Shown here: in pieces, positions 1 to 16,040 of the stretch
Layout of the letters: each line of letters opens with the position of its first letter
How positions within the stretch are numbered: position 1 is the first letter of the stretch
Assembly: GCF_000300075.1 (NCBI RefSeq)
Contig: NC_018677.1
Span: 210,001-242,000 of the forward strand
Direction: 5' to 3'
DNA length: 32,000 nucleotides
Source of the DNA: Candidatus Saccharimonadota bacterium
Lineage (GTDB): Bacteria > Pseudomonadota > Gammaproteobacteria > Johnevansiales > Johnevansiaceae
Position numbers and translations under genes: made by a program
Notes under the pieces: model-generated
The model's input: the letters and a program-made list of their open reading frames with translations, nothing else
Databases searched by the model: none
Told to the model about the DNA's origin: nothing

Positions 1-556
1 AAATTTTACTATTTTAAGCATTGACAAATTCCCTCAAATGACAGATTATATTGTACCAAATAATGTAAGAATAGCAGAACCATCAAGGATACGTTTAGGT
101 GCTTACTTAGGTGAAGGTACCACAATTATGCATGAAGGATTTTGTAATTTTAATGCAGGAACAATGGGAACTTGTATGATAGAAGGACGTATTTCTTCTG
201 GCGTCTTTATAAATAAAAATTCTGATTTAGGAGGGGGTTCTTCAATTTTAGGAACATTGTCAGGAGGAGGTAAGCTTGTAATATCACTGGGTAAAAATTG
301 TTTAATAGGAGCTAATGCTGGATGTGGTATACCTTTGGGTAATAGCTGTATTATTGAAGCAGGATTATATATAACGGCAAGTTCTAAAGTATCAGTTTTA
401 AATAGAAAAAACATACTTATTAAAATAGTAAAAGCAAAGGTATTAGCGTATAAAAACAATTTGTTATTTTTAAGAAACTCAGTTACAGGAGCGATAGAAT
501 GTCGTATAAATAAAAAAGTAATCAAACTTAATAAAGAGTTACATAAACTTTTTTAA
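1..556 (+). CDS. dapD: Tetrahydrodipicolinate N-succinyltransferase (DapD), 5' end outside the window
   Basis: The frame is open from nt 2 (NFTILSIDKFPQ before the first ATG at 38). DKFPQMTDYIVP...RLGAYLGEGTTIMHEGFCNFNAGT...EGRISSGVF...DLGGGSSILGTLSGGG...LIGANAG matches my recollection of E. coli DapD from its DKFPKMTDYVVP segment to the C-terminus, with the hexapeptide-repeat pattern. Stop TAA at 554-556. Confidence 0.9.
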   Translation, partial: NFTILSIDKFPQMTDYIVPNNVRIAEPSRIRLGAYLGEGTTIMHEGFCNFNAGTMGTCMIEGRISSGVFINKNSDLGGGSSILGTLSGGGKLVISLGKNCLIGANAGCGIPLGNSCIIEAGLYITASSKVSVLNRKNILIKIVKAKVLAYKNNLLFLRNSVTGAIECRINKKVIKLNKELHKLF

Positions 557-557
557 A

Positions 558-1712
558 ATGTATTATCTTTTAAAACTAGTATTAAATTTACTTTCAAAAA
601 ACTCTATTACACCTAATGACAAAGGATGTCAATATTTGCTTAGTAATATATTTAAACGTTTATGTTTTCGTGTAGAAGTTTTTAATAAAAAAGGAGTTCA
701 TAATTTATGGGTTACAAACGGATTTTGTAAAAAAACATTGTTATTTGTTGGTCATACAGATGTAGTTCCTTCAGGCCCAATTAAAGCATGGGAAATTAAC
801 CCGTTTTTACCTTATTTAAATAATAGAGGATATATTATATCACGTGGAATTGTCGATATGAAAGGTAGTTTATGTTCAATGATAAAAGCAACATGTAATT
901 TTATAAAATTATATCCAAAATCTAAAGAGAAAATAGCTTTTTTAATAACAAGTGATGAAGAAGGTGATGGAAATTATGGTACTAAATATGTTATAAATAA
1001 GTTAATAAAAAGAAATGAAATAATAAATTATTGTATTATCGGTGAGCCTACTAGTAAATCAAATACAGGTGATACTCTTAAAATAGGTAGACGAGGTTCA
1101 TTAAATGCCAAAATAATAATATACGGTATTCAAGGACATATAGCGTATACAAAACAATTGCTAAATCCAATACATATATTAATTAATATAATACATTATT
1201 TATTAAAAATTAGATGGGATAAAGGTAATAAATATTTTTCTAAAACCAGTTTTCAAATATCCAACTTCATTGCAGGATTAGGTGTAAGTAATATGTTACC
1301 TAAATACGCAAAAGTATTATGTAATTTTAGATTTTCAAATGAACTTACAGTTAATAAAATTAAAACCAAAGTAAGTAACATATTTTTACTGTTTAATTTA
1401 AACAAAAAAAAAGATTTTAAAATCAATTGGTATCTATCTGGAGAACCATACCTAACAAAAAAAGGTACTTTGTTAAATGCTGTAATTTTTGGAATTAATT
1501 ATATGTGCAAAATACAACCAAAAAAAAATACAAATGGTGGCATATCAGATGGTAGATTTGTCAAAAATCTTTGTAAACAAATAATTGAGTTAGGCTTAAT
1601 AAATGCCACTATACATAAAATAAATGAATGTGTTTGCGTTTCTGATATTATACTATTAACAAAACTGTATCAACTTATCATTGAATATTTGTTTATTTAT
1701 AAATTTAAATAA
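558..1712 (+). CDS. dapE: Succinyl-diaminopimelate desuccinylase (DapE, M20 peptidase)
   Basis: 384-aa ORF with the M20 metal-ligand motifs in order: VGHTDVVP, RGIVDMKG, ITSDEEGDG, IIGEPTS and a C-terminal ATIHKINE. It starts 1 nt after the dapD stop. Confidence 0.9.
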   Translation: MYYLLKLVLNLLSKNSITPNDKGCQYLLSNIFKRLCFRVEVFNKKGVHNLWVTNGFCKKTLLFVGHTDVVPSGPIKAWEINPFLPYLNNRGYIISRGIVDMKGSLCSMIKATCNFIKLYPKSKEKIAFLITSDEEGDGNYGTKYVINKLIKRNEIINYCIIGEPTSKSNTGDTLKIGRRGSLNAKIIIYGIQGHIAYTKQLLNPIHILINIIHYLLKIRWDKGNKYFSKTSFQISNFIAGLGVSNMLPKYAKVLCNFRFSNELTVNKIKTKVSNIFLLFNLNKKKDFKINWYLSGEPYLTKKGTLLNAVIFGINYMCKIQPKKNTNGGISDGRFVKNLCKQIIELGLINATIHKINECVCVSDIILLTKLYQLIIEYLFIYKFK

Positions 1713-1714
1713 GA

Positions 1715-1787
1715 TGGAGCCAAGGAGGCTTGAACTCCTAACCTCCTACATGCAAAGCAGGCGTTCTTCCAATTGAACTATGGCCCC
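1715..1787 (-). tRNA. tRNA-Ala (anticodon UGC), no encoded CCA
   Basis: The reverse complement reads GGGGCCATAGTTCAATTGGAAGAACGCCTGCTTTGCATGTAGGAGGTTAGGAGTTCAAGCCTCCTTGGCTCCA. I folded it by hand into a cloverleaf: 7-bp acceptor stem with the G3:U70 alanine identity pair, anticodon loop TTTGCAT (UGC), T-loop TTCAAGC and discriminator A. Confidence 0.9.
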
Positions 1788-3463
1788 AATAAGTTTATTA
1801 TAGCAAATTTTGTATTTCCTATTTGTAACAAATAGTTTTTATTAAGTAATATATTATAATTTGAATTAATTGTTATATTATTAATTCTTAGTTTCTTATT
1901 TTTCAATAAGTCTTTTGCTTGTGAGTTATTTTTAACTAAGCCTAATTTATTTAATATATATATTATTGGAGCTTTTTTAACTGTATTGATTATTATTTTT
2001 AGCTTAGGAATATTTATAGGGACGTAATTATTAGTAACTTTATTTCCTATAAAGTTTGATGCTTTTTTTGCTATTTGTTTTTTATAACAATATGTTATTA
2101 ATTCAATCGCTAATTTACGTTTTAGTTCTCGTGGTTTAGGTTTTATTCTCAGATTATTATGTATGTGTTTGTTAGTTGTTTTGATATTAGAAGTGTGAGT
2201 GTATTTATTAAAAATTCCATTTTGGTTAATATGTTTGTATGTATTTTTATGTATGTCTGCGTTTTTATTTGATTGTATATATGCGTCTGTATATATGTCT
2301 TTATGTTTTTTTATAATTGTATCTGCATTTGTATATGTTTTTTTTCTTGGTTTTTTGTTTGAATATGAATTATGTTGGTATTTGTTTTTTGTTTTTATGT
2401 AGATTTGTTGTTTAATATTGCTTGCATCATACATTTTAAATTGTGATTCTTTTTTTGTTTTAATTATTTCTTTATTTTTTATTTGTTTAGTTGTATTTGT
2501 TTTGTTGTGTTTTGTTTTAAGTAATTTATGATTTTTGATGTATTGGTGTTTAATTTTAATAGATTTATGTTTTCTGTTAATTGCTTTAAGACAAAGGTTG
2601 TATCTGTGTTTAAGTAAAATAGAGTAATGATTTTGGATGTGTTTGGGTTTTTGTTTTGGTTTTGTTTTAATAGATAATAAAGTTAAATATTTATAAATTA
2701 AATTATCATTAATAGAAAAAAGTTGTCTATACATATCTCCTGGTTTATCTTTGTAATTTATACAATTATTTAGAGATTTAGACATTTTGTGTTCGCCATC
2801 AGATCCTTCAAGAATAGGCATAGTGAGTATATTTTGAGGCTCTTGATTAAAAATCTTTTGCAATTCTCTTCCTATTAAAAGATTAAACAATTGATCATTA
2901 CCTCCTATTTCTATATCTGCTTTAAGAACTACTGAGTCATAAGCTTGTATTACGGGGTATATAAATTCATGCATTGAAATATTATAACCACTTTTATATC
3001 TTGTATTAAAATCATTTCTCTCTAACAATTTATATATTGTTATTTTGGAAAAAATATTAAGAAGCCTAAATAAAGATATTCTTTTTAACCACTCTGAATT
3101 AAATAAAACTTTCAACTTTTTAGGATCTAATAATTGACGAATTTGTTGTTTACATTTTATTGCGTTTATTTTAGTTTGTGCTTTAGTCAAAATATTTCTT
3201 GTTGCATTTTTTCCTGTTGGATCACCTATGATTCCCGTAAAATCACCTAAAAGAAACAATATATTATGGCCTAATTGTTGTAATAGTTTTAATTTTTTTA
3301 TCAAAACAAAATGACCTAAATGTAAATTAGGAGTAGTAGGGTCTATACCTATTTTAATATTTAATATTTTTTTTGATTTAATTTGCTTTTTAAATAGTTT
3401 TTCAATTAAAAATTTGTTTGTATTAAATTTAATTTGTTTTAAAATTACGTTTATAGTATTCAT
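1778..3463 (-). CDS. tyrS: Tyrosine--tRNA ligase (KMSKS-type, TyrZ-like) with a large internal low-complexity insertion
   Basis: HIGH motif (PNLHLGH), GDFTGIIGDPTGK, GGNDQLFN, KMSKS (GEHKMSKS), a helical-domain motif (PRELKRKLAIELI) and a C-terminal S4-like domain. It is 561 aa, versus about 400 aa for this subfamily as I recall. The TAG stop at 1778-1780 lies inside the tRNA-Ala gene. Confidence 0.85.
   Translation of the reverse strand: MNTINVILKQIKFNTNKFLIEKLFKKQIKSKKILNIKIGIDPTTPNLHLGHFVLIKKLKLLQQLGHNILFLLGDFTGIIGDPTGKNATRNILTKAQTKINAIKCKQQIRQLLDPKKLKVLFNSEWLKRISLFRLLNIFSKITIYKLLERNDFNTRYKSGYNISMHEFIYPVIQAYDSVVLKADIEIGGNDQLFNLLIGRELQKIFNQEPQNILTMPILEGSDGEHKMSKSLNNCINYKDKPGDMYRQLFSINDNLIYKYLTLLSIKTKPKQKPKHIQNHYSILLKHRYNLCLKAINRKHKSIKIKHQYIKNHKLLKTKHNKTNTTKQIKNKEIIKTKKESQFKMYDASNIKQQIYIKTKNKYQHNSYSNKKPRKKTYTNADTIIKKHKDIYTDAYIQSNKNADIHKNTYKHINQNGIFNKYTHTSNIKTTNKHIHNNLRIKPKPRELKRKLAIELITYCYKKQIAKKASNFIGNKVTNNYVPINIPKLKIIINTVKKAPIIYILNKLGLVKNNSQAKDLLKNKKLRINNITINSNYNILLNKNYLLQIGNTKFAIINLLGP
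2140..2670 (-). other. In-frame G-depleted (sense strand) K/N/T/H/Q/I/Y-rich expansion segment inside tyrS
   Basis: The protein stretch IKTKPKQKPKHIQNH...NKHIHNNLRIKPK lies between the conserved LTLLS and PRELKRKLA blocks. The + strand here is T/G-rich and C-poor, which is the same composition as the intergenic spacers. Boundaries are approximate. Confidence 0.7.
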
Positions 3464-3508
3464 AATAATTATGTTTAAACTTAAATATATGTATGGGGTA
3501 TAAACTAA

Positions 3509-4090
3509 ATGGAAAATATTGGATTATCTTTAATAAATACATTAATTAATTTATATACATTTATGTTAATGTTACGTTTTGCTTTACATATTTCATATGT
3601 AGATAATAAAAATCCTATAACTCAAAACATAAGAAAACTTACATCGGTTATGGTAAATCCAGTAAAGAAATGTATTAAATCTATTGGATGTTTTGAATTA
3701 GCAACATTTGTTTCAGCAATTTTCATTAAAACATTTTCTATTACTATAATTTATTTATTGTATCTAAATAACATACCACCAATAATCAATTTATTTATTG
3801 GTTCGTTTGCTAGCGTGTTAAATATCTTAAGCAGATTGTATTTTTTTTCTTTAATCATAATGACTATTCTTAATTGGATGGTAAATAAGTCAGAGCACCC
3901 GGGTTCAAAGTTAATAATACAAATAACAGCACCTATAATGGTTTTTTTTAAAAGTTTTATTCCTCCTATAGGCATTATAGATATTACGCCTATAGCTGCT
4001 TTTATATTTATAAATTTAATAGATAATATAATTATTTGCCCATTAATAAATTTTGCTTCGTTACCATCATCTATTTTAGTTGGTTATTAA
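3509..4090 (+). CDS. yggT: YggT-family integral membrane protein
   Basis: 193-aa hydrophobic ORF with a two-repeat architecture. It resembles my recollection of E. coli YggT: LYTFMLMLRFAL...NP near the N-terminus, and PIGIIDITPI compared with GGIDFSP in the second repeat. Confidence 0.75.
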   Translation: MENIGLSLINTLINLYTFMLMLRFALHISYVDNKNPITQNIRKLTSVMVNPVKKCIKSIGCFELATFVSAIFIKTFSITIIYLLYLNNIPPIINLFIGSFASVLNILSRLYFFSLIIMTILNWMVNKSEHPGSKLIIQITAPIMVFFKSFIPPIGIIDITPIAAFIFINLIDNIIICPLINFASLPSSILVGY

Positions 4091-4141
4091 AAATATAATT
4101 ATATAATATAATAAAAAAAAAATAAGGCATAAATAAAAATT

Positions 4142-4951
4142 ATGATAAAAATAATTGTTTTAGGATCTATGGGTCGTATTGTAAAATTATTAATTAAAAC
4201 GATAAAAAAAGATAAAAACATAAAGTTAGTAGGTGCCGTAATAAATCCAAACCATAAATTAATTGGAATAGATATTGGAGAAATAATAGGGTTAGGTAAA
4301 ATAAATATAAAACCAGTTGGCAATATAAACGATGTAAAAACTAATTTTGATACAATAATAGATTTTACTAATCCAAAAATAACTTTACAAAATTTAGAAT
4401 ATTGCTCTAAAAGTTTTAAAACAAATAGTAATTGGTACAACAGTTTAAAAAACAAAACAAAAAAATAAAATTATTTAAAGATAAAGTACCTTTTTGTGTT
4501 AACAGCTAATATGAATATTTGTGATAATGTTGTATAAAAATAAAGAAAAAGTATGACAAAAAAACTAAAAAAAAAAGATTTTGATATAGACATTATTGAA
4601 TATCATCATCGTAATAAGATAGATTATCCTTATGGTACAGCATTAAGTATAGGTAAACAAATAGCAAAACTTATAGGCTACAAATTAAATACTATTAAAG
4701 TTTAAAACAAAACAGGTCCACGTATAAAAAATACAATAGGATATTCAATTATTAGAGCTGGAGAAATAATAGGAGAGCATAAAATACTGTTTACTTCAAA
4801 ATCTGGTGAAGTAATTGAGATTAATCATAAAGTAACTAATAGACTAGTATTGGCTTATGGAGCATTACTTGCAGCAAAATGGATAAAAAACAAAAAAAAT
4901 GGGTTTTATAATATGCAAGATGTACTTAAAGAGGAAAATAAATTTGTATAA
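4142..4951 (+). pseudogene. dapB: Dihydrodipicolinate reductase (dapB) pseudogene
   Basis: A DapB-like N-terminus (MIKIIVLGSMGRIV...IIDFTNP) runs to about 4430. The IVIGTT block is then in another frame, and 4440-4552 has several frameshifts and stops. A C-terminal block from 4553 (DIDIIEYHHRNKIDYPYGTA...IGYSIIRAGEIIGEHKILF...INHKV) is interrupted by an in-frame TAA at 4703-4705 and ends at TAA 4949-4951. The position directly upstream of carA matches the canonical dapB-carAB order. Confidence 0.85.
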
Positions 4952-6026
4952 ATTAGCTTTATTAGCATTAGAGGATGGGAGTATTTATAAAGGTATTTCT
5001 ATAGGTTATTGTGGCAACACTTCAGGTGAAGTGATATTTAATACTTCAATTACAGGATATCAAGAGATTATAACGGATCCTTCTTATATTAAACAAATCG
5101 TAAACTTTACGAATCCTCATGTAGGAAATACAGGCATAAACAACGAAGATATAGAATATAAAAAAATTTGTGTGTCTGGTTTAATATTAAATTGTATGCC
5201 TAATGTAATAATCAGTAATGATCGCAGTAATTGTTCTTTAATCGAATATTTAAAAACTCAAAAAATTGTTTGTATAGCAAACATTGATACAAGAACTTTA
5301 ACAATACATTTAAGAGATAAAGGTATACAACAGGGAGCTATTATAACAGTAAAAAATATAAATAATAAAAATATAAAACTAGCAAAAAAGTTAGCACGGA
5401 AAAAGATAAAGTTCAAAACTATACAGTTAAATTACAGAACAAAAAAATATAATTATAAAATTTATAAATTTCATATTGTTGTTTATGATTTTGGTACAAA
5501 ATATAATATAATAAGGATATTAAAACAATTAGGATGTTGCATTACCATCATCTCATATAAAACTTCATTTAAAGAAATTATATCTATGAAACCAACCGGA
5601 GTTTTATTATCTAATGGACCAGGTAATCCTGAGGATTATAAGGAATCTTTAAATACCATAAAACAATTGTGTACTAATAAAATTCCTTTATTTGGTATTT
5701 GTTTAGGACATCAATTATTGGCTTTGGCTAGTGGGGCAAAAACAAAAAAAATGAATTTTGGTCATCACGGTTCAAATCATCCAATATTAGATATTAAAAC
5801 TGGAAAAATATTTATTACCAGTCAAAACCATTGTTTTGTTGTTGATGAATATAGCTTACCAAAGACAATAAAAATTACTCATAGATCTATATTTGATGGC
5901 ACGTTACAAGGACTAGAAAGAACAGATTGTCCTGCTTTAAGTTTTCAAGGGCATCCTGAAGCAAATCCAGGACCACAGGATGCAAATTTATTGTTTTATC
6001 GGTTTATCAAAAAATTAAATAGTTAA
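4944..6026 (+). CDS. carA: Carbamoyl-phosphate synthase small (glutaminase) subunit
   Basis: It carries the GATase motifs GICLGHQLL and the HPE-containing FQGHPEA. A TTG start at 4944 gives (M)[16 protein letters not shown], parallel to E. coli MIKSALLVLEDG, and is preceded by AAGAGGA at 4929-4935. In-frame ATGs at 4920 and 4899 are alternatives but would overlap the dapB remnant. Confidence 0.9.
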
Positions 6027-6040
6027 TGGAAGAGTTAATT

Positions 6041-9000
6041 ATGCAAAAATATATACATATAAAAAAAGTATTAATTATTGGATCAGGACCTATTATTATT
6101 GGCCAGGCATGTGAATTTGATTATTCTGGTGTACAAGCATGCAAAGCTTTAAGAGAAGAAGGCATATATGTTATATTAGTTAATTCAAATCCAGCTACAA
6201 TAATGACTGATCCGCAAATAGCTAATTCAACATATATAGAACCAATAAATTGGAAAATTTTATCTAAAATAATTGAAAAAGAAAGGCCAGATGCATTATT
6301 GGCAACAATGGGGGGACAAACAGCTTTAAATTGTGCATTAGATTTATGTAAATATGGTATATTAAAAAAATTTAATGTTAAACTTATTGGCGTTAATATC
6401 TCATCAATAAAAAAGGCTGAAAATCGTAAAAAGTTTATTACGTTAATGAATACGATTGGGCTTGAAAGTCCTAAATCTGTAATAATTAGATGTATAAAAG
6501 ATATTTATGGAATAAAAAAAAAGATAGGTTTTCCTTGCATTATACGTCCTTCTTATACTATGGGGGGGTTGGGTGGTGGTATAGCAAAAGATTTTGAGGA
6601 ATTAAAAGAAATTTGTATTAGAGGTTTAAATATAGCCCCTACTTCAGAATTATTAATAGATGAATATTTAAATGGTTGGAAAGAGTATGAATTGGAGTTA
6701 CTACGTGATAAAAAAGGTAATTGCATTATTATATGTTCAATAGAAAATGTTGATGCACTAGGTGTACATACAGGGGATTCAATAACAGTAGCACCTGCAC
6801 AAACTTTAACTGATAAACAATATCAAATAATGCGTAATGCTTCTCTTACTATTTTGAAAACAATTGGAATAGATAGTGGCGGTTCAAATGTCCAGTTTGG
6901 TGTAAATCAAAAATCTGGAAAAATGGTAGTAATAGAAATGAATCCTAGAGTTTCTAGATCATCTGCTTTAGCGTCTAAAGCTACAGGTTTTCCTATAGCT
7001 AAAGTAGCAGCAAAATTAGCAATAGGTTATACTTTAGATGAATTAAAAAATGATATAGGTAACATACCGGCTTCGTTTGAACCTACTATAGATTATGTAG
7101 TTACAAAAATACCTAGTTTTAATTTTGAAAAATTTCCTAAAGCAAATGATAGGTTAACAACAGAAATGAAATCTGTTGGTGAAGTAATGGGTATAGGAAG
7201 AAGTTTTAAAGAATCTTTACAAAAAGCAATACGTAGCTTAGATATAGGAATAAATGGTTTTGATAACAAAATAGTAAAGTTAAATAATACCTCTTTGAAT
7301 AAAATAAAAAAGGAACTAATAAATCCAGGATATGAACGTATTTTTTATATTGCAGATGCTTTAAGGGCGGGATTAACAACAAAAGAAGTTTTAAAGTATA
7401 CAAAAATAGATATTTGGTTTATAAATCAAATAAAAGAATTAATAAATATAGAAAATATTTTTTTAAATAAAACTATAACGAATATTACTTATGAAAATTT
7501 ATATTTATTAAAAAAACAAGGCTTTAGTGATCAGAGAATTGCTGATTTATTAAAAGTTAAAGAAAAAACAATTAGAGATTTACGGAACAAGTTTAAGATA
7601 CATCCAGTATATAAAAGAGTTGATACTTGTTCTGCAGAATTTACTACTTCAACGGCTTATATGTATTCTACTTATGAAAATGAATGTGAAGCAAAAATTA
7701 CAAATACTTCGGATAAAATCATTATCATAGGTAGTGGCCCTAATAAAATAGGACAAGGTATTGAGTTTGATTATTGTTGTGTACAAGCAGCTATTGCTTT
7801 AAGAGAGTGTGGTTATGAAACTATAATGATAAATTGTAATCCAGAAACAGTTTCTACCGATTATGATATAAGTGATAGATTGTATTTTGAACCAATAACT
7901 GTAGAAGATTTATTAGAAATAATAAGAAAAGAAAATCCGAAAGGAGTAATTATTCAGTTTGGTGGTCAAACTCCTTTAAAAATAATTAAAAATATAACAA
8001 AAAAAGAAATACCTATCATTGGAACAAAGAAAACAGCAATAGATATAGCTGAAGATAGAGAAAAATTTAAAAAGTTACTAAAAAAACTTAAGTTATTACA
8101 GCCTGTAAACGAAATTGCTTTTAATATAGAAGAGGCTTTAATTAAAGCTAAAAATATAGGTTATCCTTTGATTGTTCGTCCTTCTTATGTTATCGGCGGT
8201 AGAGCAATGGAAATTGCTTATAATGTAACAGAATTAAAGAAATATATAAAAAAAGCATTGAAAATCTCAAATAACAATTCTATTTTATTGGATAAATATA
8301 TAAACAAAGCAATAGAAATAGATATTGACGCGGTATCAGATGGTAAAGAAGTTATAATTTGTGGAATTATGCAACATATAGAGCAAGCAGGTATACATTC
8401 AGGAGATTCGGCTTGTTCTTTACCGCCTTTTAGTTTAGATATACATCTTCAAAATGTAATAAAAACACAAATAAAAAAAATTGCTATTGAATTAAAAGTT
8501 GTAGGATTGATGAATTGTCAATTAGCATGTAAAAACAATAAAGTTTATATTTTAGAAGTCAATCCTAGAGCTTCACGAACTATACCGTTTGTTTCAAAAT
8601 GTATTGGTTTTTCTTTAGCTAAAATAGCTGCAACTTGTATGATAGGTAACTCTTTAAATAATCACAATTTGTTAAAGAAAATAAAACCTAAAATTTTTTG
8701 TGTAAAAGAAGCTGTATTGCCTTTTAATAAATTTATAGGTGTAGATCCGGTTTTATCTCCAGAAATGAAATCCACTGGTGAAGTAATGGGTATAGGAAGT
8801 AATTTTAGTGAAGCATTTTATAAAGCACAAATTAGCATAGGAATGCCTATTATTAAAATAACAAATAATAAACAACTTATTGCTTTAATTTCAGTTTCTA
8901 AGAAAGATAAAAATAAAATCTCAAAAATAGCAAAAAATTTAATTAGCTTAGGTTTTAACTTATTAGCTACGGTGGGTACAGCTAAAGTTTTATTAAAACA

Positions 9001-9265
9001 TGGCTTTAATGTTAAAATCATTAGCAAACAAAATATTAGTTTGATTTTTAAGAAATACAAAATAACTTATGTAATAAACACAAAAAACAAAAAATATAAC
9101 TTAATAAATAAAAAATATATTATTCGCAATACTGCCATTATAAAAAAAGTACCATACACCACCACAATTGCAGGTGCATATGCTATATGTATGGCTTTAA
9201 AATACTGTAAAAAAATCAACAAAGTTAGAAAGATTCAAGACATGCATTTTGGAGTTGGTAAATGA
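6041..9265 (+). CDS. carB: Carbamoyl-phosphate synthase large subunit
   Basis: It has two ATP-grasp halves ([17 protein letters not shown] and [17 protein letters not shown]; [19 protein letters not shown] and [10 protein letters not shown]) plus a C-terminal MGS-like domain. ATG 6041 sits 6 nt after GGAAGAG and gives [16 protein letters not shown], the same spacing as E. coli MPKRTDIKSILILGAG. ATG 6026, overlapping the carA stop as TAATG, is the alternative start. Confidence 0.95.
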
Positions 9266-9750
9266 TGGATTCAGCAAAAAAAATTCATATGACAAAAGAG
9301 GGTGAAAGACAATTAAAAAAAGAACTGAAGAAGTTAAAAACTATTGATAGAAAGAAAATCATAAAGGATATTTATGAAGCAAGAAAACATGGTGATTTAA
9401 AAGAAAACGCAGAATATCATTCTGCTATTGAACAACAATGTTTATTAGAAAGACGTATTAAAGAAATTGAAAACAAAATTGCTAACGCTCATGTAATAGA
9501 TATAACTAAAATATATCAAAATGGTAAAATAATATTTGGAACAACAGTTACTCTAGTCAATTTGCTTTATAAAAAAAAAATTAAATATAAAATCGTAGGA
9601 GAAGATGAAGCAAATATAAAAAAAAAGAAAATATCTATTACATCTCCAATAGCACGTGCTTTGATTGGAAAAAAAAGAGGTGATATTGTTACTGTAAATA
9701 CACCAGGTGGTGTTGTAAAATATGAAATTAATTTGATTGAATTTTTATAA
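9262..9750 (+). CDS. greA: Transcription elongation factor GreA
   Basis: 162 aa with [21 protein letters not shown] and a C-terminal [18 protein letters not shown] motif. Its start overlaps the carB stop (ATGA). Confidence 0.9.
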
Positions 9751-9794
9751 AATATATTAATGTTAAATAACTTAATAAGTTTGTATTTTTATAT

Positions 9795-11606
9795 ATGGCT
9801 AAAAACATAATTAATTTGTTAATTATATTAGCAGTATTATTGACAATATTTAATAATATAAACATTAATTCTAATACTCAACTATTGAATTATTCTAAAT
9901 TTGTACAACTAATAAAAAATAACCAAGTACGAACAGTTATTATTGATGGAAGTTTTATAAATGGGGAGCATAAAGATGGATCAAAGTTTAAAACAATTAG
10001 ACCAACAATTGAAGATCCTAGTTTAATAGATGATTTATTGAATCATAGTGTTTCTATAGTAGGAAAAGAACAAACAAAAAACAGTATATGGTCAAAATTA
10101 TTTATATCTAGCTTTCCTATTCTCATTATTATAGCTGGTTTATTATTTTTTATGCGGCAAATGCAAATTCAGGTTGGCGGTAAAAAGGGCGGACCACTAG
10201 TTTTTGGTAACTCTAAAGCTAAATTAATATCAAAAGATCAAATAAAAATTACTTTTAGAGAAGTTGCAGGTTGTGATGAAGCTAAGTTTGAAATAGAGGA
10301 AGTAGTAGAGTTTTTAAAAGATGTACAGAAATTTACAAAATTTGGAGGAAAAATACCTAAAGGCGTTTTGATGATAGGTCCACCAGGTACCGGCAAGACT
10401 TTACTTGCTAAAGCTATAGCAGGTGAAGCAAAAGTACCTTTTTTTACTATTTCAGGTTCAGAGTTTGTAGAAATGTTTGTAGGTATAGGCGCTTCTCGTG
10501 TTAGAAATATGTTTGTACAAGCAAAAAAAAAAGCACCCTGTATTATTTTTATAGATGAAATTGATGCTGTAGGTAGAAATAGAGGGTCAAATTTATTAGG
10601 CGGAGGCGGCCATGATGAAAGAGAACAAACATTAAATCAATTGTTAGTTGAAATGGATGGATTTGAATCAAACAAGGGTACTATTGTTATAGCAGCAACT
10701 AATCGTCCAGATGTATTGGACAAAGCTTTGTTAAGGCCCGGAAGGTTTGATAGAAAAGTTAATATAAACTTACCAGATAGTAGAGGCAGAGAAAATATAA
10801 TTAATATTCATTTAAGAAAAATACCTTTGTCGGATGATGTAGAAACGAAAATAATTGCTATGGGAACGCCAGGATGTTCTGGCGCGGAATTAGCTAATAT
10901 AGTAAATGAAGCTGCTATTTTAGCCGCCAAACGGAAAGTAAAGTTAGTTAGTATGTTTGATTTAGAAAAAGCAAAAGACAAAATAATTATGGGCACTGAA
11001 AGACGTTCAATGGTTATGTCTGAAAAAGAAAAACGTAATACAGCTTATCACGAGGCCGGACATGCTATAATAGGCTTATTAATGCCAGAACACGATCCCA
11101 TATATAAAGTAAGTATAATTCCAAGAGGACAAGCATTAGGTGTTACAATGTTTTTACCGAAAATAGATCGATATTGTTACTCTCGTAAACAAGTACTTAG
11201 TCACATTTGTTCTTTATTTGGTGGTCGTATTGCAGAAGAGTTAACGCAAGGCTTTAGTGGAGTTACGACAGGAGCATCAAATGATATAAAATGTGCAACA
11301 GAAATAGCACACAATATGGTATATAAATGGGGGTTTTCTTCAAATATGGGACCTATAATGTATGATGAATACAAAATTAACAATCAACTTTATAATAGAA
11401 CTTTATTAAAATCTATAAATACATTTGAAAATTTAGATAAAGAAATATTTAACATTATAGATTTTTGTTATTTTAAAGCTTATTCAATACTTAAAAGAAA
11501 TATTGATAAACTTGATTTAATGGCAGAATCTTTGTTTTTTTATGAATCAATAAATTTAAATCAAATACAACAAATAATGTATGGAGTTTTCCCACAAACA
11601 GATTGA
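9795..11606 (+). CDS. ftsH: ATP-dependent zinc metalloprotease FtsH
   Basis: It has an N-terminal TM segment, Walker [19 protein letters not shown], Walker [10 protein letters not shown], the second region of homology [20 protein letters not shown] and the zinc site HEAGHAI. Confidence 0.95.
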
Positions 11607-11806
11607 CTAGTTTAAATTTTGTTAATATTTGTTTTGAGCTTTTCATCATTTTTTTTCTTATATTACATTTAAATATTCAGTTTAATTTAAGTTTTATTAG
11701 TCATTGCAGTATTTTTTTATTACATACGCTAACTTATTTTTTTCTCGTAACATTTTTTTTGTTTTTATTAACTTTACTTTGTTTTACTTGACTCACCATT
11801 TCTTTA

Positions 11807-11891
11807 GCCGAGGTGGTGAAATTGGTATACACGCTACTTTGAGGGGGTAGTAACTATAACTGTTGTGCGGGTTCAAATCCCGCCCTTGGCA
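11807..11891 (+). tRNA. leuU: tRNA-Leu (anticodon GAG), type II long variable arm, no encoded CCA
   Basis: GCCGAGGTGGTGAAATTGGTATACACGCTACTTTGAGGGGGTAG...GCGGGTTCAAATCCCGCCCTTGGCA. It folds by hand with a 7-bp acceptor stem and anticodon loop TTGAGGG. It closely resembles my recollection of E. coli leuU and sits in the same position, just before the initiator tRNA. Confidence 0.85.
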
Positions 11892-11907
11892 TCATATGTA
11901 TTTTAAA

Positions 11908-11981
<74 letters not shown>

Positions 11982-12454
11982 CATACTTACTTGTTTCCCT
12001 TTACATTTGTTTGATTTTTAACATTAATTACAAAACATTAATCATAAACCCTTTATCATAAGAACTTTAAATTTTTAACATACAGCTTAAACTTTTTATT
12101 ACATATATCCTCTCTTTATATCTACTCTTAAACTCAACACTAATCATACAACATATATATACTTAATGAAGATAACACAAAAAAACATCTAACAACAGCA
12201 AATTTATAACAACAAAAAAATACTCCATCCATTAACGAGAAAAAAATATAAAAAACAATAAAAAAATAACAGAACATATAACAAAGAACAAAAAAAACAA
12301 AGAACATAATAAAAGGATAAAGAAATACAAAAAATATAATCAGATCAGATAACATAAAAAAGAAGAAAAAGTACTTAGCAGAAAACACAATAAAAAGCAA
12401 GAGCAAAAAAAACATAAAAAGGTTATTTGCTTATACATTAGCATTAGGAAATGT
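11982..12454 (+). other. Strand-skewed gene-free spacer S1: G-poor A/C/T part, then an A-dominated part
   Basis: There is no credible ORF; the only one listed is an F-rich antisense artefact at 12140-12415. From 11990 to about 12170 there is almost no G. From about 12170 to 12454 the sequence is mostly A, with some G and C. The spacer fills the slot where rimP lies in relatives. Confidence 0.8.
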
Positions 12455-13588
12455 ATGATGAGTAAAGATATTTTATTTGTTATTGATTCTATTTTAAATG
12501 AAAAAGGTGTAGCACGGCAATTAGTTTTTAAAACAGTCGAAGAAGCTTTATCTAGTGCAACTATTCAAAGATTTGAAGAAAAAAAAGTCAATATCATAGT
12601 AAAGATGAATCGCATAAATGGTAAATATGATACTTTTCGTAGATGGAAAGTTGTTAAAGATGAAAAATATACTAAATCATCAATTGAAATTCCTTATGCT
12701 GCTGCTAAAAAAATAAATACAAAGTTTGAAATTAATAAACATATTGAATATAAAATTGAGAATATTAAATTTGGTAGATTAGCTATTAAATTTGCGAAAC
12801 ATATTATTGTTCAAAAAGTTCGTGATTCTGAACAGACTGAGATAATACGTATTTATAGTAAAAAATTAGGTGAAATAATATGTGGTAATATAAAAAAAAT
12901 TATAAAAGAAGGTATAATAATTGAGTTTGATGACAAAAATGAAGGGTTTTTACCACGTAAGCAAATGATTCATGGTGAACGGTTTAATATTAATGAGCGT
13001 ATACGTGCTTTATTATTAAATATAAAGCCTTATAGTCGTAAATTAAAATTAATACTTTCAAGATGTTGTTCAAAATTTATAATTGAATTATTAAAACGAG
13101 AAAGTCCAGAGATAATAGATGAATTAATAGAAATTAAAAGTGTTGCAAGAGATCCAGGTTATAAATCTAAAGTTGCAGTTAAAACTAAAGATTATAATAT
13201 TGACACAGTAGGTTCTTGTGTAGGTATTCGTGGTTCAAGAACAAAATTTATTTATAATGAATTACGTAATGAACACATAGATATAATACTTTGGGACAAA
13301 AATGCCACAAAATTTGTTATTAATGCTTTGTATCCTTTAGATGTTATTTCTTTAATTGTTGATGTAAATAATCACAACATGGAAATTGTTGTTAAGGATC
13401 AAAGTTATTATAAAGCTATAGGGAAAGGTGGACAAAATATTAAATTAACTTCTGAAATAACGGGGTGGATGTTGAATGTTGTTACTAAAAATGAAGTAAA
13501 GAAAAAAAATAAAAAGAAAGTGAAAAATTTAAGTTTAAAACTTGAAATAGATGAAAAAATAGCAGCTTTATTAGTGGATTTTGGTTAA
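12455..13588 (+). CDS. nusA: Transcription termination/antitermination factor NusA, ending within the first C-terminal acidic repeat
   Basis: N-terminal MMSKDILFVIDSILNEKGV is comparable to E. coli MNKEILAVVEAVSNEK. It has an S1 domain and two KH domains (GVCVGIRGSR-like VGSCVGIRGSRTK, and AIGKGGQNIKL). AGGAAA lies upstream of the ATG. The TAA at 13586-13588 interrupts an AR1-like HhH segment that continues in frame. Confidence 0.9.
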   Translation: MMSKDILFVIDSILNEKGVARQLVFKTVEEALSSATIQRFEEKKVNIIVKMNRINGKYDTFRRWKVVKDEKYTKSSIEIPYAAAKKINTKFEINKHIEYKIENIKFGRLAIKFAKHIIVQKVRDSEQTEIIRIYSKKLGEIICGNIKKIIKEGIIIEFDDKNEGFLPRKQMIHGERFNINERIRALLLNIKPYSRKLKLILSRCCSKFIIELLKRESPEIIDELIEIKSVARDPGYKSKVAVKTKDYNIDTVGSCVGIRGSRTKFIYNELRNEHIDIILWDKNATKFVINALYPLDVISLIVDVNNHNMEIVVKDQSYYKAIGKGGQNIKLTSEITGWMLNVVTKNEVKKKNKKKVKNLSLKLEIDEKIAALLVDFG

Positions 13589-13748
13589 AATTATTTGGAA
13601 GAGATTGTATATGTTCCTATTGAAGACTTTTTAAAAATAAAAAAAATAAATATAAATGTAATACAAAAATTTAAATCACGTGCATTTGATGAATTGCTAA
13701 AATTAGCAATGAACTAAAAAATGAAATACAATATTATGGAGAAACATA

Positions 13749-16040
13749 ATGGTAGAAATAACTGTTAAAGATTTTGCAAATAAACTAGGATGTAATACAA
13801 AGAGGTTAATAAGTTATTTAACAAATGCCGGTGTAAAAAATAAAAAGGCTGAGAATTTATTAACAGAAAAAGATAAACAAACTTTATTAACTTATCTATT
13901 TTATAAACAAGGTATAACTAATTTTTATTTAACTAGAAAAAAATATAGTAAGCTACATATGAATAATAAAGTAATTGATATTCAAATATGCAAAAACAAG
14001 ACTTTTTTAAACTTAGATACAGAAGAAATAGAAAGAAATAAAAACTATAATCGTATTTATAATATACAATCAAACAAGAAATTAATTGACATACATACTT
14101 TTAAAAATCACAAAACAAATATTATTAGAGAAATAAATATTTATGAATCTAATAGTCTTTTAGATTTAGCTAAAAAGTTGGCAATAAAAGCAGCCGACTT
14201 AATGAAAGCTTTGTTAAGGATTTGTGTTTTAGTTAATATAAATCAACCAATTAGCAAAGATTCAGCTTTTTTTGTTGTAGAAGAACTAGGCCACATACCA
14301 AAAAATATTAATGTTACTGATAATGATTTTGAAGATCTTTTACTTAATACAAAAACCAGAATTCATAATACTAAAAACATAAATACACAAAAAGTTGATA
14401 AACAGAAAAACAACAATCACAATACAAACAAGAACAAACAACATACTAAACCTAGTAAAAAAAAATATATAAATAACAATTCAAATACTAACAAACAATA
14501 TACAAAAATAAAAGCTAAAACTATTAACGCATTTAGCGCTGGTAAATATTTTAAACGCTGTCCAATAATTACTGTAATGGGTCATGTAGACAATGGTAAA
14601 ACCTCTTTAATTGATTTAATTCGTAATTCTAAATTAGTCAATAACGAAATAGGAGGTATTACTCAATATATAGATGTTTATCATGTTAATTTAGATCAAG
14701 GAAATAACATCACAATAATTGACACTCCAGGTCATAAAGCATTTATAAATATGCGTAAAACTGGTGTAAAGTTTACAGATATAGTTATCTTAGTTGTTTC
14801 AGCTGATGATGGTATAAAACCTCAAACTATTGAAGCAATAGACCATGCTAAAACTCTAAAGCTACCTGTAGTTGTTGCTATTAATAAAATTGATAAAATA
14901 GGAACAGATATCGGTCGCGTGCGTAATCAGTTATCTAAGTTTGGTCTTATACCTGAAGAATGGGGAGGAGAAACTTATTACATTCCAGTTTCCGCAAAAG
15001 TTGGTTTGGGCTTAGATTTGTTATTAGAATCAGTACGTTTTATATCAGAACTTATAGATTTAACTACAGTATTAGATTCTCCAGGTATAGGGGTAGTAAT
15101 AGAATCTAGAATAGATGTAGGAAAAGGACCTGTAGCTAAAATTTTAGTTTTAAATGGTACTTTAAAGAAAGGTGATATAGTATTATGTGGTTTGCATTAT
15201 GGTAGAGTACGTGCAATAATAAATCATTTAGGAAACATTGTTGAGCAAATAGGTCCTTCTATACCTGCAGCAATTATTGGATTTAATGGTGTTCCAGAAG
15301 CTGGCGAACAATTTAATGTAGTATCAGATGAAAAAAAAGCACGTGAGATTGTTAATAATCGTTCTATAAAATATATAAATAACAAACAAAAAACTAATCT
15401 TATTCAAGATATTTTAAAAAAAATAAACACTATCAATATTGTACTTAAAGCGGATGTGCAAGGAACATTACACGCATTACGTACTTCTATAAAAGAATTA
15501 TCTAACGATCAAATTGTTCTTAACATAATATCAGCTAGTGTTGGAAATCTTAACTCAAATGATGTTAATTTAGCAATTATATCAAAAGCAATCTTAATCG
15601 GTTTTAACGTACAAGTAGTAAGTAAAGCTAGAGATCTTATTGAACGTGAGCATATAAAGTTCTTTTATTTTAAACTAATTTATAAATTCATTGATGGTCT
15701 AAACGAAATAATACATAAGACATTAAATCCTAAAAAAATCGAAGATATTATTGGTATTGCTGAAATTCGTGATACTTTTAAATATAACAAAAAAAATGGA
15801 GTTATCATTGGATGTATAGTATTAAAAGGGAAGGTTGTACGCAATAAAAAAATACGAATTATTCGTAATAATGACATTATTTATAAAGGCGATTTAGTTT
15901 CGTTACGTCGTTTTAAAAAAGATGTTAATGAAGTTAGTACTGGCTTAGAGTTTGGTGTTTGTCTTCGTGATTTAAACGATGTTAAGGTTGGTGATAGAAT
16001 CGAAATTTTTGATCTCATTACATGTAACAACAAACTTTAA
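13749..16040 (+). CDS. infB: Translation initiation factor IF-2
   Basis: GGAG lies 8 nt upstream of the ATG. The G domain has MGHVDNGKTSLID, DTPGH and NKID, followed by domains with VLKADVQGTLHAL and a C-terminal beta-barrel. 763 aa. Confidence 0.95.
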   Translation: MVEITVKDFANKLGCNTKRLISYLTNAGVKNKKAENLLTEKDKQTLLTYLFYKQGITNFYLTRKKYSKLHMNNKVIDIQICKNKTFLNLDTEEIERNKNYNRIYNIQSNKKLIDIHTFKNHKTNIIREINIYESNSLLDLAKKLAIKAADLMKALLRICVLVNINQPISKDSAFFVVEELGHIPKNINVTDNDFEDLLLNTKTRIHNTKNINTQKVDKQKNNNHNTNKNKQHTKPSKKKYINNNSNTNKQYTKIKAKTINAFSAGKYFKRCPIITVMGHVDNGKTSLIDLIRNSKLVNNEIGGITQYIDVYHVNLDQGNNITIIDTPGHKAFINMRKTGVKFTDIVILVVSADDGIKPQTIEAIDHAKTLKLPVVVAINKIDKIGTDIGRVRNQLSKFGLIPEEWGGETYYIPVSAKVGLGLDLLLESVRFISELIDLTTVLDSPGIGVVIESRIDVGKGPVAKILVLNGTLKKGDIVLCGLHYGRVRAIINHLGNIVEQIGPSIPAAIIGFNGVPEAGEQFNVVSDEKKAREIVNNRSIKYINNKQKTNLIQDILKKINTINIVLKADVQGTLHALRTSIKELSNDQIVLNIISASVGNLNSNDVNLAIISKAILIGFNVQVVSKARDLIEREHIKFFYFKLIYKFIDGLNEIIHKTLNPKKIEDIIGIAEIRDTFKYNKKNGVIIGCIVLKGKVVRNKKIRIIRNNDIIYKGDLVSLRRFKKDVNEVSTGLEFGVCLRDLNDVKVGDRIEIFDLITCNNKL
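14345..14525 (+). other. G-poor N/K/T/Q/H low-complexity segment inside infB, just upstream of the G domain
   Basis: NTKTRIHNTKNINTQKVDKQKNNNHNTNKNKQHTKPSKKKYINNNSNTNKQYTKIKAKT is encoded almost entirely by G-free codons. The composition matches the intergenic spacers. Boundaries are approximate. Confidence 0.6.

Follow-up and report, generated by a model that had tools for sequence, protein, structure and literature searches.

A 179-codon low-complexity insert in the tyrosyl-tRNA synthetase gene of Candidatus Portiera aleyrodidarum, probably grown by replication slippage

The tyrS locus and its in-frame insert

We analyzed a window of 32,000 nucleotides from the genome of Candidatus Portiera aleyrodidarum, the symbiont of Bemisia tabaci (genome G000, a single contig, C1, of 351,658 bp; positions 210001-242000). 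The window carries tyrS, the gene for tyrosyl-tRNA synthetase (TyrRS), and the gene for tRNA-Ala(TGC), which overlaps its 3' end (Table 1). Within the tyrS frame, a long low-complexity insert separates the catalytic part of the enzyme from its C-terminal tRNA-binding module.

Profile searches identified the tyrS product as a bacterial tyrosine--tRNA ligase (class I, TyrZ-like). The Pfam family tRNA-synt_1b (PF00579) matched residues 32-268 (3.3e-65, 220.7 bits), and TIGR00234 tyrS scored 270.7 bits against a cut-off of 113.8. The signature motifs HLGH and KMSKS are located at residues 48-51 and 226-230, respectively. The invariant TyrRS residues are all kept: in an alignment of 29 sequences, the window protein conforms at each of the 60-odd invariant columns. 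The C-terminal part matched Pfam S4 at 17.1 bits, under the cut-off of 22.8, and in a second HMMER stretch TyrRS residues 442-554 aligned with residues 289-402 of the Acinetobacter baumannii TyrRS structure 6bqy; the predicted structure of the protein also matched a full-length TyrRS (1h3e, see below). The C-terminal 118 codons share 65-72% identity with those of other Portiera. The substrate gene, tRNA-Tyr(GTA), is also encoded in the genome (81 nt, with a long variable arm).

The insert is bounded by LTLLS, which ends at residue 264, and PRELKRK, which starts at residue 444, and comprises 179 codons (537 nt). A first-pass annotation, made from the letters of this DNA, had placed a G-free block of about 170 codons inside TyrRS at positions 2140-2670. 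The long in-frame block is indeed present, with slightly wider bounds (2135-2671). Its sense strand consists of 57.5% A, 17.7% C, 4.1% G and 20.7% T; it is thus strongly G-poor, and "G-free" overstated the bias, as 22 of the 537 nt are G. The same annotation had described almost exclusive use of amino acids with G-free codons. The block is rich in such residues (K42 I23 N22 T16 H14 Y12 Q10; net charge +39); D, E, A, R, S, M and G occur in it as well. The insert accounts for 32% of the length of TyrRS, a net gain over congeners of about 165-169 amino acids.

The overlap with tRNA-Ala(TGC) was a separate observation. The first 11 nt of the tRNA gene are the last 11 nt of tyrS (1778-1788), and the 5' end of the acceptor stem, GGGGCCATAG, encodes Gly-Pro-stop. 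Every Portiera TyrRS has ...GP at its C-terminus; in the window protein this end is set by the tRNA-Ala overlap and is separate from the insert.

Table 1. Features of the tyrS locus and related in-frame inserts (window positions unless otherwise given; aa, amino acids)
Feature	Position	Strand	Size or content	Basis
tyrS coding sequence	1778-3463	-	561 codons plus stop, single unbroken frame	
N-terminal part of TyrRS: Rossmann catalytic domain (HLGH, KMSKS) and first helical-domain helices, up to LTLLS	2672-3463	-	264 codons	Pfam; AlphaFold2
In-frame low-complexity insert	2135-2671	-	179 codons (residues 265-443)	composition; alignment; shuffling
Decayed hexanucleotide array (AAACCN/CACCAA) at the 5' end of the insert	2631-2668	-		Tandem Repeats Finder; strain alignment
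C-terminal part of TyrRS: remaining helical anticodon-binding region (PRELKRKLAIELI...) and putative S4-like domain	1778-2134	-	118 codons	HMMER against 6bqy; AlphaFold2
tRNA-Ala(TGC)	1713-1788	-		ARAGORN; Rfam tRNA 63.6 bits
infB insert, between IF2_N and G domain	14358-14534 (infB 13725-16040)	+	59 codons; A 0.605, C 0.158, G 0.045, T 0.192	
der insert			~96-105 aa, in three blocks	
rsmH insert			45 + 23 aa	
tusE (DsrC family) insert			54 aa	
aceE insert			21 aa	
Inserts of Pealius Portiera (genome G004): (NSF/NSL)n, (TPS)n, (KENKED)n	genes 113310-114680, 79602-80870, 124654-126867 of G004		43, 17, 17 aa	

The reading frame of the insert is under selection

Stop trinucleotides are frequent in the insert (33, comprising 31 TAA and 2 TGA), all of them out of frame. 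When the segment was shuffled 100,000 times with its composition preserved, not one shuffle was open (mean 14 in-frame stops, minimum 2), and the analytic probability of an open frame was 5e-7 to 1e-6. These results agree with the earlier suggestion that so long an open frame in A-rich DNA exceeds chance; the probability was about 1e-6. When 179-codon windows were examined in all six frames of the genome's long spacers, 32 of 149,988 were open (2e-4), and these came from two loci only. One of these loci is a real gene (peroxiredoxin-like, G000:286158-287470), for which Pealius has no match. The other is a frame of 194 codons in the spacer G000:116505-119815 (-), with 7.9% G, 25% C and a very hydrophobic product.

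We then compared the insert among Portiera strains. It was found on >25 contigs from many independent runs and in four complete genomes, and five protein variants of 561, 561, 565, 567 and 573 amino acids were present on 3, at least 22, 1, 1 and 2 contigs, respectively. The window protein is identical to the variant on 3 public contigs, and the variant on at least 22 contigs, also of 561 amino acids, differs from it at two residues, both inside the insert. Between the variants of the Middle East-Asia Minor 1 (MEAM1) type and the Mediterranean (MED) type, every amino-acid difference also lies inside the insert. The occurrence of five length variants across >25 independently assembled contigs indicated that the segment is not an assembly artefact.

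The length differences between strains were +6, +6, +6, +18 and +24 nt, all multiples of 6, and the frame was kept in all five variants. Variation lies in microsatellites of the types (AAACCC)n and (CACCAA)n and in AAACAA and AAAAAA units, indicating ongoing slippage of hexamers. In the array at the 5' end of the insert, copy number varies between strains (KPKQKPKH versus KPKPKPKPKHQHQHQC). Spacer indels within 20 kb around tyrS in the same genomes measured 1, 1, 1, 2, 3, 4, 5, 5, 7, 10, 12, 14, 27, 28, 55 and 82 nt, of which only 3 of 16 are multiples of 3, and Sloan and Moran reported that spacer indels in this lineage peak at 7 bp (PMC3673631). The restriction of indels in the insert to multiples of 6, set against these spacer indels, is direct evidence of selection on the frame and so on translation as far as the C-terminal module. 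Purifying selection on the frame, which the first-pass annotation had deduced from the lack of stops, thus received independent support from the indels.

The nucleotide sequence of the insert showed a different behavior. Between G000 and CP016327, divergence was 2.4% in the insert and 2.2% in spacers, compared with 0.44% in the rest of tyrS and 0.36% in neighboring genes. Non-synonymous divergence (dN) was about 0.02 in the insert, 0 in the N-terminal 264 codons (four B. tabaci-complex strains) and 0.004-0.007 in the C-terminal 118 codons. The ratio of dN to synonymous divergence (dS) in the insert was about 0.4 on 13 changes, 7 of them non-synonymous and 6 synonymous, which is indistinguishable from 1 at these counts. 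The sequence of the insert drifts at the non-coding rate, and the reading frame alone is preserved.

These data also bear on whether the insert lies in a working protein at all, rather than being an artefact or part of a pseudogene, a gene in two pieces, an intron or an intein. The essential status of tyrS is an assumption: argS, asnS, thrS, metG, alaS and trpS are missing from Portiera of the B. tabaci lineage (PMC7821994), and with these six aminoacyl-tRNA synthetase genes already lost, loss of tyrS is conceivable. However, >25 contigs and four complete genomes carry the insert, the probability of the open frame (about 1e-6) and the 6n-only indels speak for translation, and 179 open codons would be pointless if the two halves were translated separately. 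The catalytic half, with a dN of 0 and its invariant residues kept, is under strong purifying selection despite the losses of other synthetases. An insert outside the working protein is accordingly extremely improbable.

Three specific candidates were rejected. A pseudogene does not agree with the absence of stops in 561 codons, the absence of N-terminal amino-acid changes among strains and the frame kept in five variants. For an intein, Pfam gave only tRNA-synt_1b and a weak S4 match, and the block begins with Ile and is followed by Pro. For an intron or ribozyme, an Rfam search of positions 1600-3600 of the window (E up to 1) found tRNA only. The small fragment P0077 (a 245-nt contig) is from a genome assembly and so provides no evidence of transcription.

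Two further features of strain variation were observed. Substitutions among Portiera of the B. tabaci complex (L028/L029 versus G000; 21.7 kb around tyrS, window positions ~1-13500 plus the upstream flank) were nearly all transversions, with 31 A<->T, 29 A<->C/T<->G and 1 C<->G changes and 6 transitions in genes, and a similarly transversion-heavy spectrum in the spacers and the insert. Bacteria very rarely show a transition/transversion ratio as low as this (about 0.1), and the changes of the A:T<->C:G class are reminiscent of damage of the mutT type; no mention of the transversion excess was found in the papers searched. In addition, the insert of three strains (L028-L030) contains an unbroken run of 11 A (...ATAAAAAAAAAAACAAAAAAC...) at window position ~2398, where runs in G000 are of at most 8 A. 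Ribosomes can slide on poly(A) tracks of this kind, or transcription can slip there, and the run would be a possible cost of the insert.

Linker length increases stepwise among Portiera lineages

To place the insert in its lineage, TyrRS proteins of four Portiera lineages and seven free-living relatives were aligned, and the linker was measured by the same cut in each. The whole TyrRS excess was confined to one loop. As the first-pass annotation had stated, relatives have a short linker: it lies within 10-14 amino acids in Portiera of Pealius mori (G004; TyrRS of 393 amino acids), Trialeurodes (G003; 395) and the Aleurodicus type (G001; 396), and measures 18 in the seven free-living relatives (394-399) and 21 in Portiera of Singhiella simplex (G002; 404), where it is already K/H/Q/T-rich. 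The linker is 113 amino acids long in the lineage P0003 from ENA (locus L027; TyrRS of 496 amino acids) and 179-191 in the B. tabaci complex (561-573).

A maximum-likelihood tree of the TyrRS core gave the branching order (Pealius, (Singhiella, (P0003, B. tabaci))), with supports of 100/99 and 96/92, and linker length climbs stepwise along it from 10-14 through 21 and 113 to 179-191 amino acids. This graded series fits gradual growth. P0003 carries its insert at this very site, between the same flanks (LLSIKTKP... ...KPRELK) and with the same kind of base content (A.64, C.17, G.02, T.17). When the interiors of the B. tabaci and P0003 blocks were compared as protein, the Smith-Waterman score was 111 against 86±10 for shuffles, and 5 of 500 shuffles reached it. 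At the DNA level, homology of the two blocks was not significant, as 74 of 300 codon shuffles reached the score. The shared flanks, with this weak similarity at the protein level, hint at a common origin for the two blocks.

The same lineages differ at dapB. The gene is split in the B. tabaci lineage into DapB_N (~101-108 amino acids) and DapB_C (132 amino acids; window ~4099-4899, L028 8511-9322), and it is intact in P0003 (270 amino acids; L027 8516-9328). The lysine pathway is partly lost in Portiera of B. tabaci and Singhiella (PMC7821994).

Predicted structure and comparison with other TyrRS

The first-pass annotation had suggested structure modelling of the insert, and the window TyrRS was modelled with AlphaFold2 using the 29-sequence alignment. 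The predicted local distance difference test score (pLDDT) was ~70-90 for residues 1-264 and 444-560 (C-terminal ~70-84), and <50 (mostly 22-35) for residues 265-284 and 294-441. The flanking domains were thus predicted to adopt a normal TyrRS fold, and the insert was given no confident structure, which is compatible with disorder without proving it. The best matches of the model were the Thermus thermophilus TyrRS-tRNA complexes 1h3e and 9sdf, with template modelling scores of 0.71-0.72 normalised to the target. In sequence comparison, the catalytic part and the C-terminal module aligned with the TyrZ-type enzymes of A. baumannii (6bqy, 2e-90), Helicobacter pylori (6byq, 5e-81) and T. thermophilus (1h3e, 1e-72), which have ~13-20 residues at the insert site compared with 179 in Portiera of B. 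tabaci. By sequence, the insert takes the place of ~13 residues of A. baumannii TyrRS (6bqy chain residues 275-289).

The same loop is expanded in another system. In its anticodon-binding domain, the apicoplast TyrRS of Plasmodium falciparum carries a low-complexity insertion (insertion 2, residues 368-424) of 56 amino acids, 30% of them Asn. Plasmodium species share the position of this insertion but differ in its length and sequence, including absence and (NEELK)n repeats, and the recombinant enzyme shows activity in vitro with the insertion in place (PMC6310243). Comparison of the published alignment (PMC6310243 S1 Fig) with our MAFFT alignment placed this insertion and the Portiera block in the same inter-helix loop. 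Both enzymes are bacterial-type TyrRS encoded in AT-rich genomes, with the loop between Y(I/L)..L(T/S) and K..L(A/S)..(V/L)(T/I) and a composition that tracks genome bias. The Plasmodium gene is a eukaryotic nuclear gene with an Asn-rich insertion (AAT repeats), whereas the Portiera insert is three times longer, rich in Lys, Ile, Asn, Thr and His, and strand-asymmetrically G-poor; direct evidence for drift at the spacer rate under frame-only selection comes from the Portiera side. By these alignments, the same TyrRS loop has expanded independently in two AT-rich systems.

The position of the loop raises the question of function. Asp259 of T. thermophilus TyrRS reads the anticodon base G34 (PMC1934993), and by HMMER coordinate offset the invariant Asp253 of Portiera is probably its equivalent, which would place the insert loop one helix away from the residue inferred to read G34. 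In addition, identity to free-living relatives is only 21-28% for the C-terminal module throughout Portiera, compared with 50-55% for the catalytic part. The insert could have been co-opted, with a basic, flexible chain that binds tRNA non-specifically, or that makes translation pause and so aids folding of the enzyme in two halves, and that offsets the degenerate anticodon module. The net charge of +39 with 14 His and a dN/dS of about 0.4 rather than 1 are in line with such a role. However, the insert is substituted at the spacer rate, the amino-acid differences between MEAM1-type and MED-type strains all fall in the block, and its length varies between strains (179-191 amino acids) and lineages (21, 113 and 179). 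Its basic composition is the default product of A-rich, G-poor DNA and is seen in five unrelated proteins, and congeners function with a linker of 10-14 residues. No observation calls for a functional arm, and we consider co-option unlikely.

A related proposal is that a functional segment was born de novo, in a bacterial endosymbiont, out of mutational filler. By analogy with the lysine-rich tRNA-binding extensions appended to eukaryotic synthetases, a polybasic disordered arm might hold tRNA-Tyr on an enzyme with a degenerate anticodon module, so that its length would be selected and its sequence would not. This proposal seems decidedly unlikely.

Comparison with intergenic spacers and inserts in other genes

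Portiera of B. tabaci and of Singhiella simplex, which have lost dnaQ, are known for expanded, microsatellite-rich spacers (PMC3673631, PMC7821994). When the long spacers were cut into 200-nt tiles, G made up <=6% of one strand in two thirds of them. After orientation, the median composition of the tiles was A.435, C.185, G.045 and T.315, and the composition of the G-poor tiles was A.45, C.21, G.03 and T.31. As to a replication-strand explanation of the polarity, the G-poor strand was mixed in most 25-kb bins. The third codon positions of the insert are spacer-like (A.52, C.17, G.01, T.30), and T is deficient at codon positions 1 (13%) and 2 (18%). The earlier statement that insert and spacers share one composition consequently holds for G, C and the third positions, and does not hold for A, which is above, and T, which is below, the typical spacer. 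The T deficit may mean that mutation supplies the insert and the spacers alike, and that TAA stops (T at position 1) and hydrophobic residues (T at position 2) are then filtered out of the insert.

The spacers of B. tabaci and Singhiella Portiera resemble the insert in being G-poor and A/C-rich, in having strain-variable short repeats and in their equal substitution rate. They differ in being non-coding with a 7-bp indel peak, whereas the insert reads in frame through tyrS with 6n/3n changes only and is T-depleted at positions 1 and 2. About 500 nt of G-poor sequence arose within an intact gene from a linker of 10-20 residues; this sequence is not a decayed gene, which supports the view, put forward in the first-pass annotation, that such sequence is generated de novo.

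To search for similar inserts, every open reading frame was compared with the complete Pealius Portiera genome. This comparison replaced a raw scan for G-poor tracts, in which noise was too high, since the sense strand of ordinary genes is itself poor in C. The largest internal gap relative to Pealius was that of tyrS (~168 amino acids), and further inserts were found in der, rsmH, infB, tusE and aceE (Table 1). In all six genes the sense strand of the insert is A/C-rich and G-poor and the net charge is positive. The five other inserts, like that of tyrS, lie between conserved blocks with the same sense polarity; the tyrS insert is the largest of the six, at 179 amino acids against 105, 72, 59, 54 and 21 for the others, and the sole one traced through a graded lineage series and strain length polymorphism. 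With the hexamer microsatellites and the spacer-like third positions, these inserts in five further genes agree with the proposal that the process that builds the spacers also acts inside genes.

The infB insert is missing in Pealius, Trialeurodes, Aleurodicus-type and Singhiella Portiera, and the der insert is missing in Singhiella. Singhiella Portiera has the largest spacers, yet its TyrRS linker is 21 residues long and it lacks both of these inserts. Large spacers thus need not bring large in-gene inserts, and a general link of this kind did not stand. The infB product of the ENA lineage has 777 amino acids and probably carries the infB insert too. Pealius Portiera, whose genome counts as "stable", in turn has near-perfect in-frame microsatellite inserts of its own that are absent in B. 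tabaci Portiera.

The best non-self match of the tyrS block in the genome (blastn) was the rsmH insert: G000:317899-317998 matched window positions 2472-2569 at 75 bits, with ~78% identity over 100 nt, an exact stretch of 17 nt, the same codon phase and a shared HKSIKIK(Q)K. A spacer (G000:148426-148527) matched at 68 bits, and the maximum of 20 shuffles was 65 bits. These matches, in a genome known for recombination at repeats (PMC3673631), might point to capture of the insert in one or a few steps from a G-poor spacer or from the insert of another gene, by template switching or illegitimate recombination, followed by trimming to an open frame. The excess over shuffles is small, however, and an exact 17-mer is expected about once by chance in such biased sequence, by our estimate. 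A random piece of spacer is open over 179 codons in only ~2 of 10,000 cases, and the graded series of 10-14, 21, 113 and 179-191 amino acids, with its live hexamer arrays, fits gradual growth instead. Capture therefore appears very unlikely.

Origin and significance of the insert

We interpret the insert as lineage-specific, low-complexity filler, grown by slippage in a permissive loop of the TyrRS helical domain, and as a tolerated by-product of unstable replication in its lineage rather than a new domain, with a probability of roughly 0.78. The insert has the marks of slippage-type low-complexity sequence: it is absent in orthologues, occupies a fixed site, shares the spacer bias, is polymorphic in multiples of 3 nt and shows relaxed constraint. 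In the B. tabaci Portiera lineage, the short loop joining two helices of the helical (anticodon-binding) domain would have expanded in situ, as short A/C-rich repeats slipped during replication and underwent small duplications, and this growth was probably gradual. Stops and frameshifts in the insert would cut off the C-terminal tRNA-binding module, which follows it on the same chain, so that only length changes in multiples of 3 would survive selection. The A/C-rich strand alone would be tolerated as sense, since it encodes the hydrophilic residues K, N, T, Q, H and P and would give a loop that is basic and disordered; translation of the opposite strand would yield F, L, V, C and W. The full-length protein would then be made and active, and the loop would leave tRNA binding unobstructed.

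Several points weigh against growth by slippage as tolerated filler. Singhiella Portiera combines large spacers with little growth inside genes, so that the two are not simply coupled. The insert starts 11 residues after Asp253, and the loop may therefore sit near the tRNA. A dN/dS of about 0.4 may leave room for weak constraint, and the borderline likeness of the rsmH and tyrS inserts may hint at copying between loci, or be due to chance. Transcription of tyrS and the existence of full-length TyrRS are deduced from the DNA.

The Portiera genome papers searched do not mention tyrS or in-frame insertions, and a literature search found no paper combining Portiera with tyrosyl-tRNA synthetase. 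The insert is thus apparently unreported; its mechanism, slippage-driven growth of low-complexity sequence in a permissive loop, would be an ordinary one.

Proteins of ancient insect endosymbionts normally shrink, whereas TyrRS of B. tabaci Portiera grew by 42%, with DNA that is non-coding-like save for its reading frame. The gene can be regarded as a natural experiment on the amount of unstructured filler that an enzyme central to translation can bear, on which loops are permissive, given that the organelle TyrRS of malaria parasites is expanded at the same loop, and on how a mutator background, here loss of polymerase proofreading, writes new sequence in genes. For annotators and phylogeneticists, it places strain-variable hexamer arrays within a conserved gene of the symbiont of an important crop pest. 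A short linker can give rise de novo to at least 500 nt of G-poor, spacer-like sequence, a point of relevance to how the bloated spacers of this genome originated.

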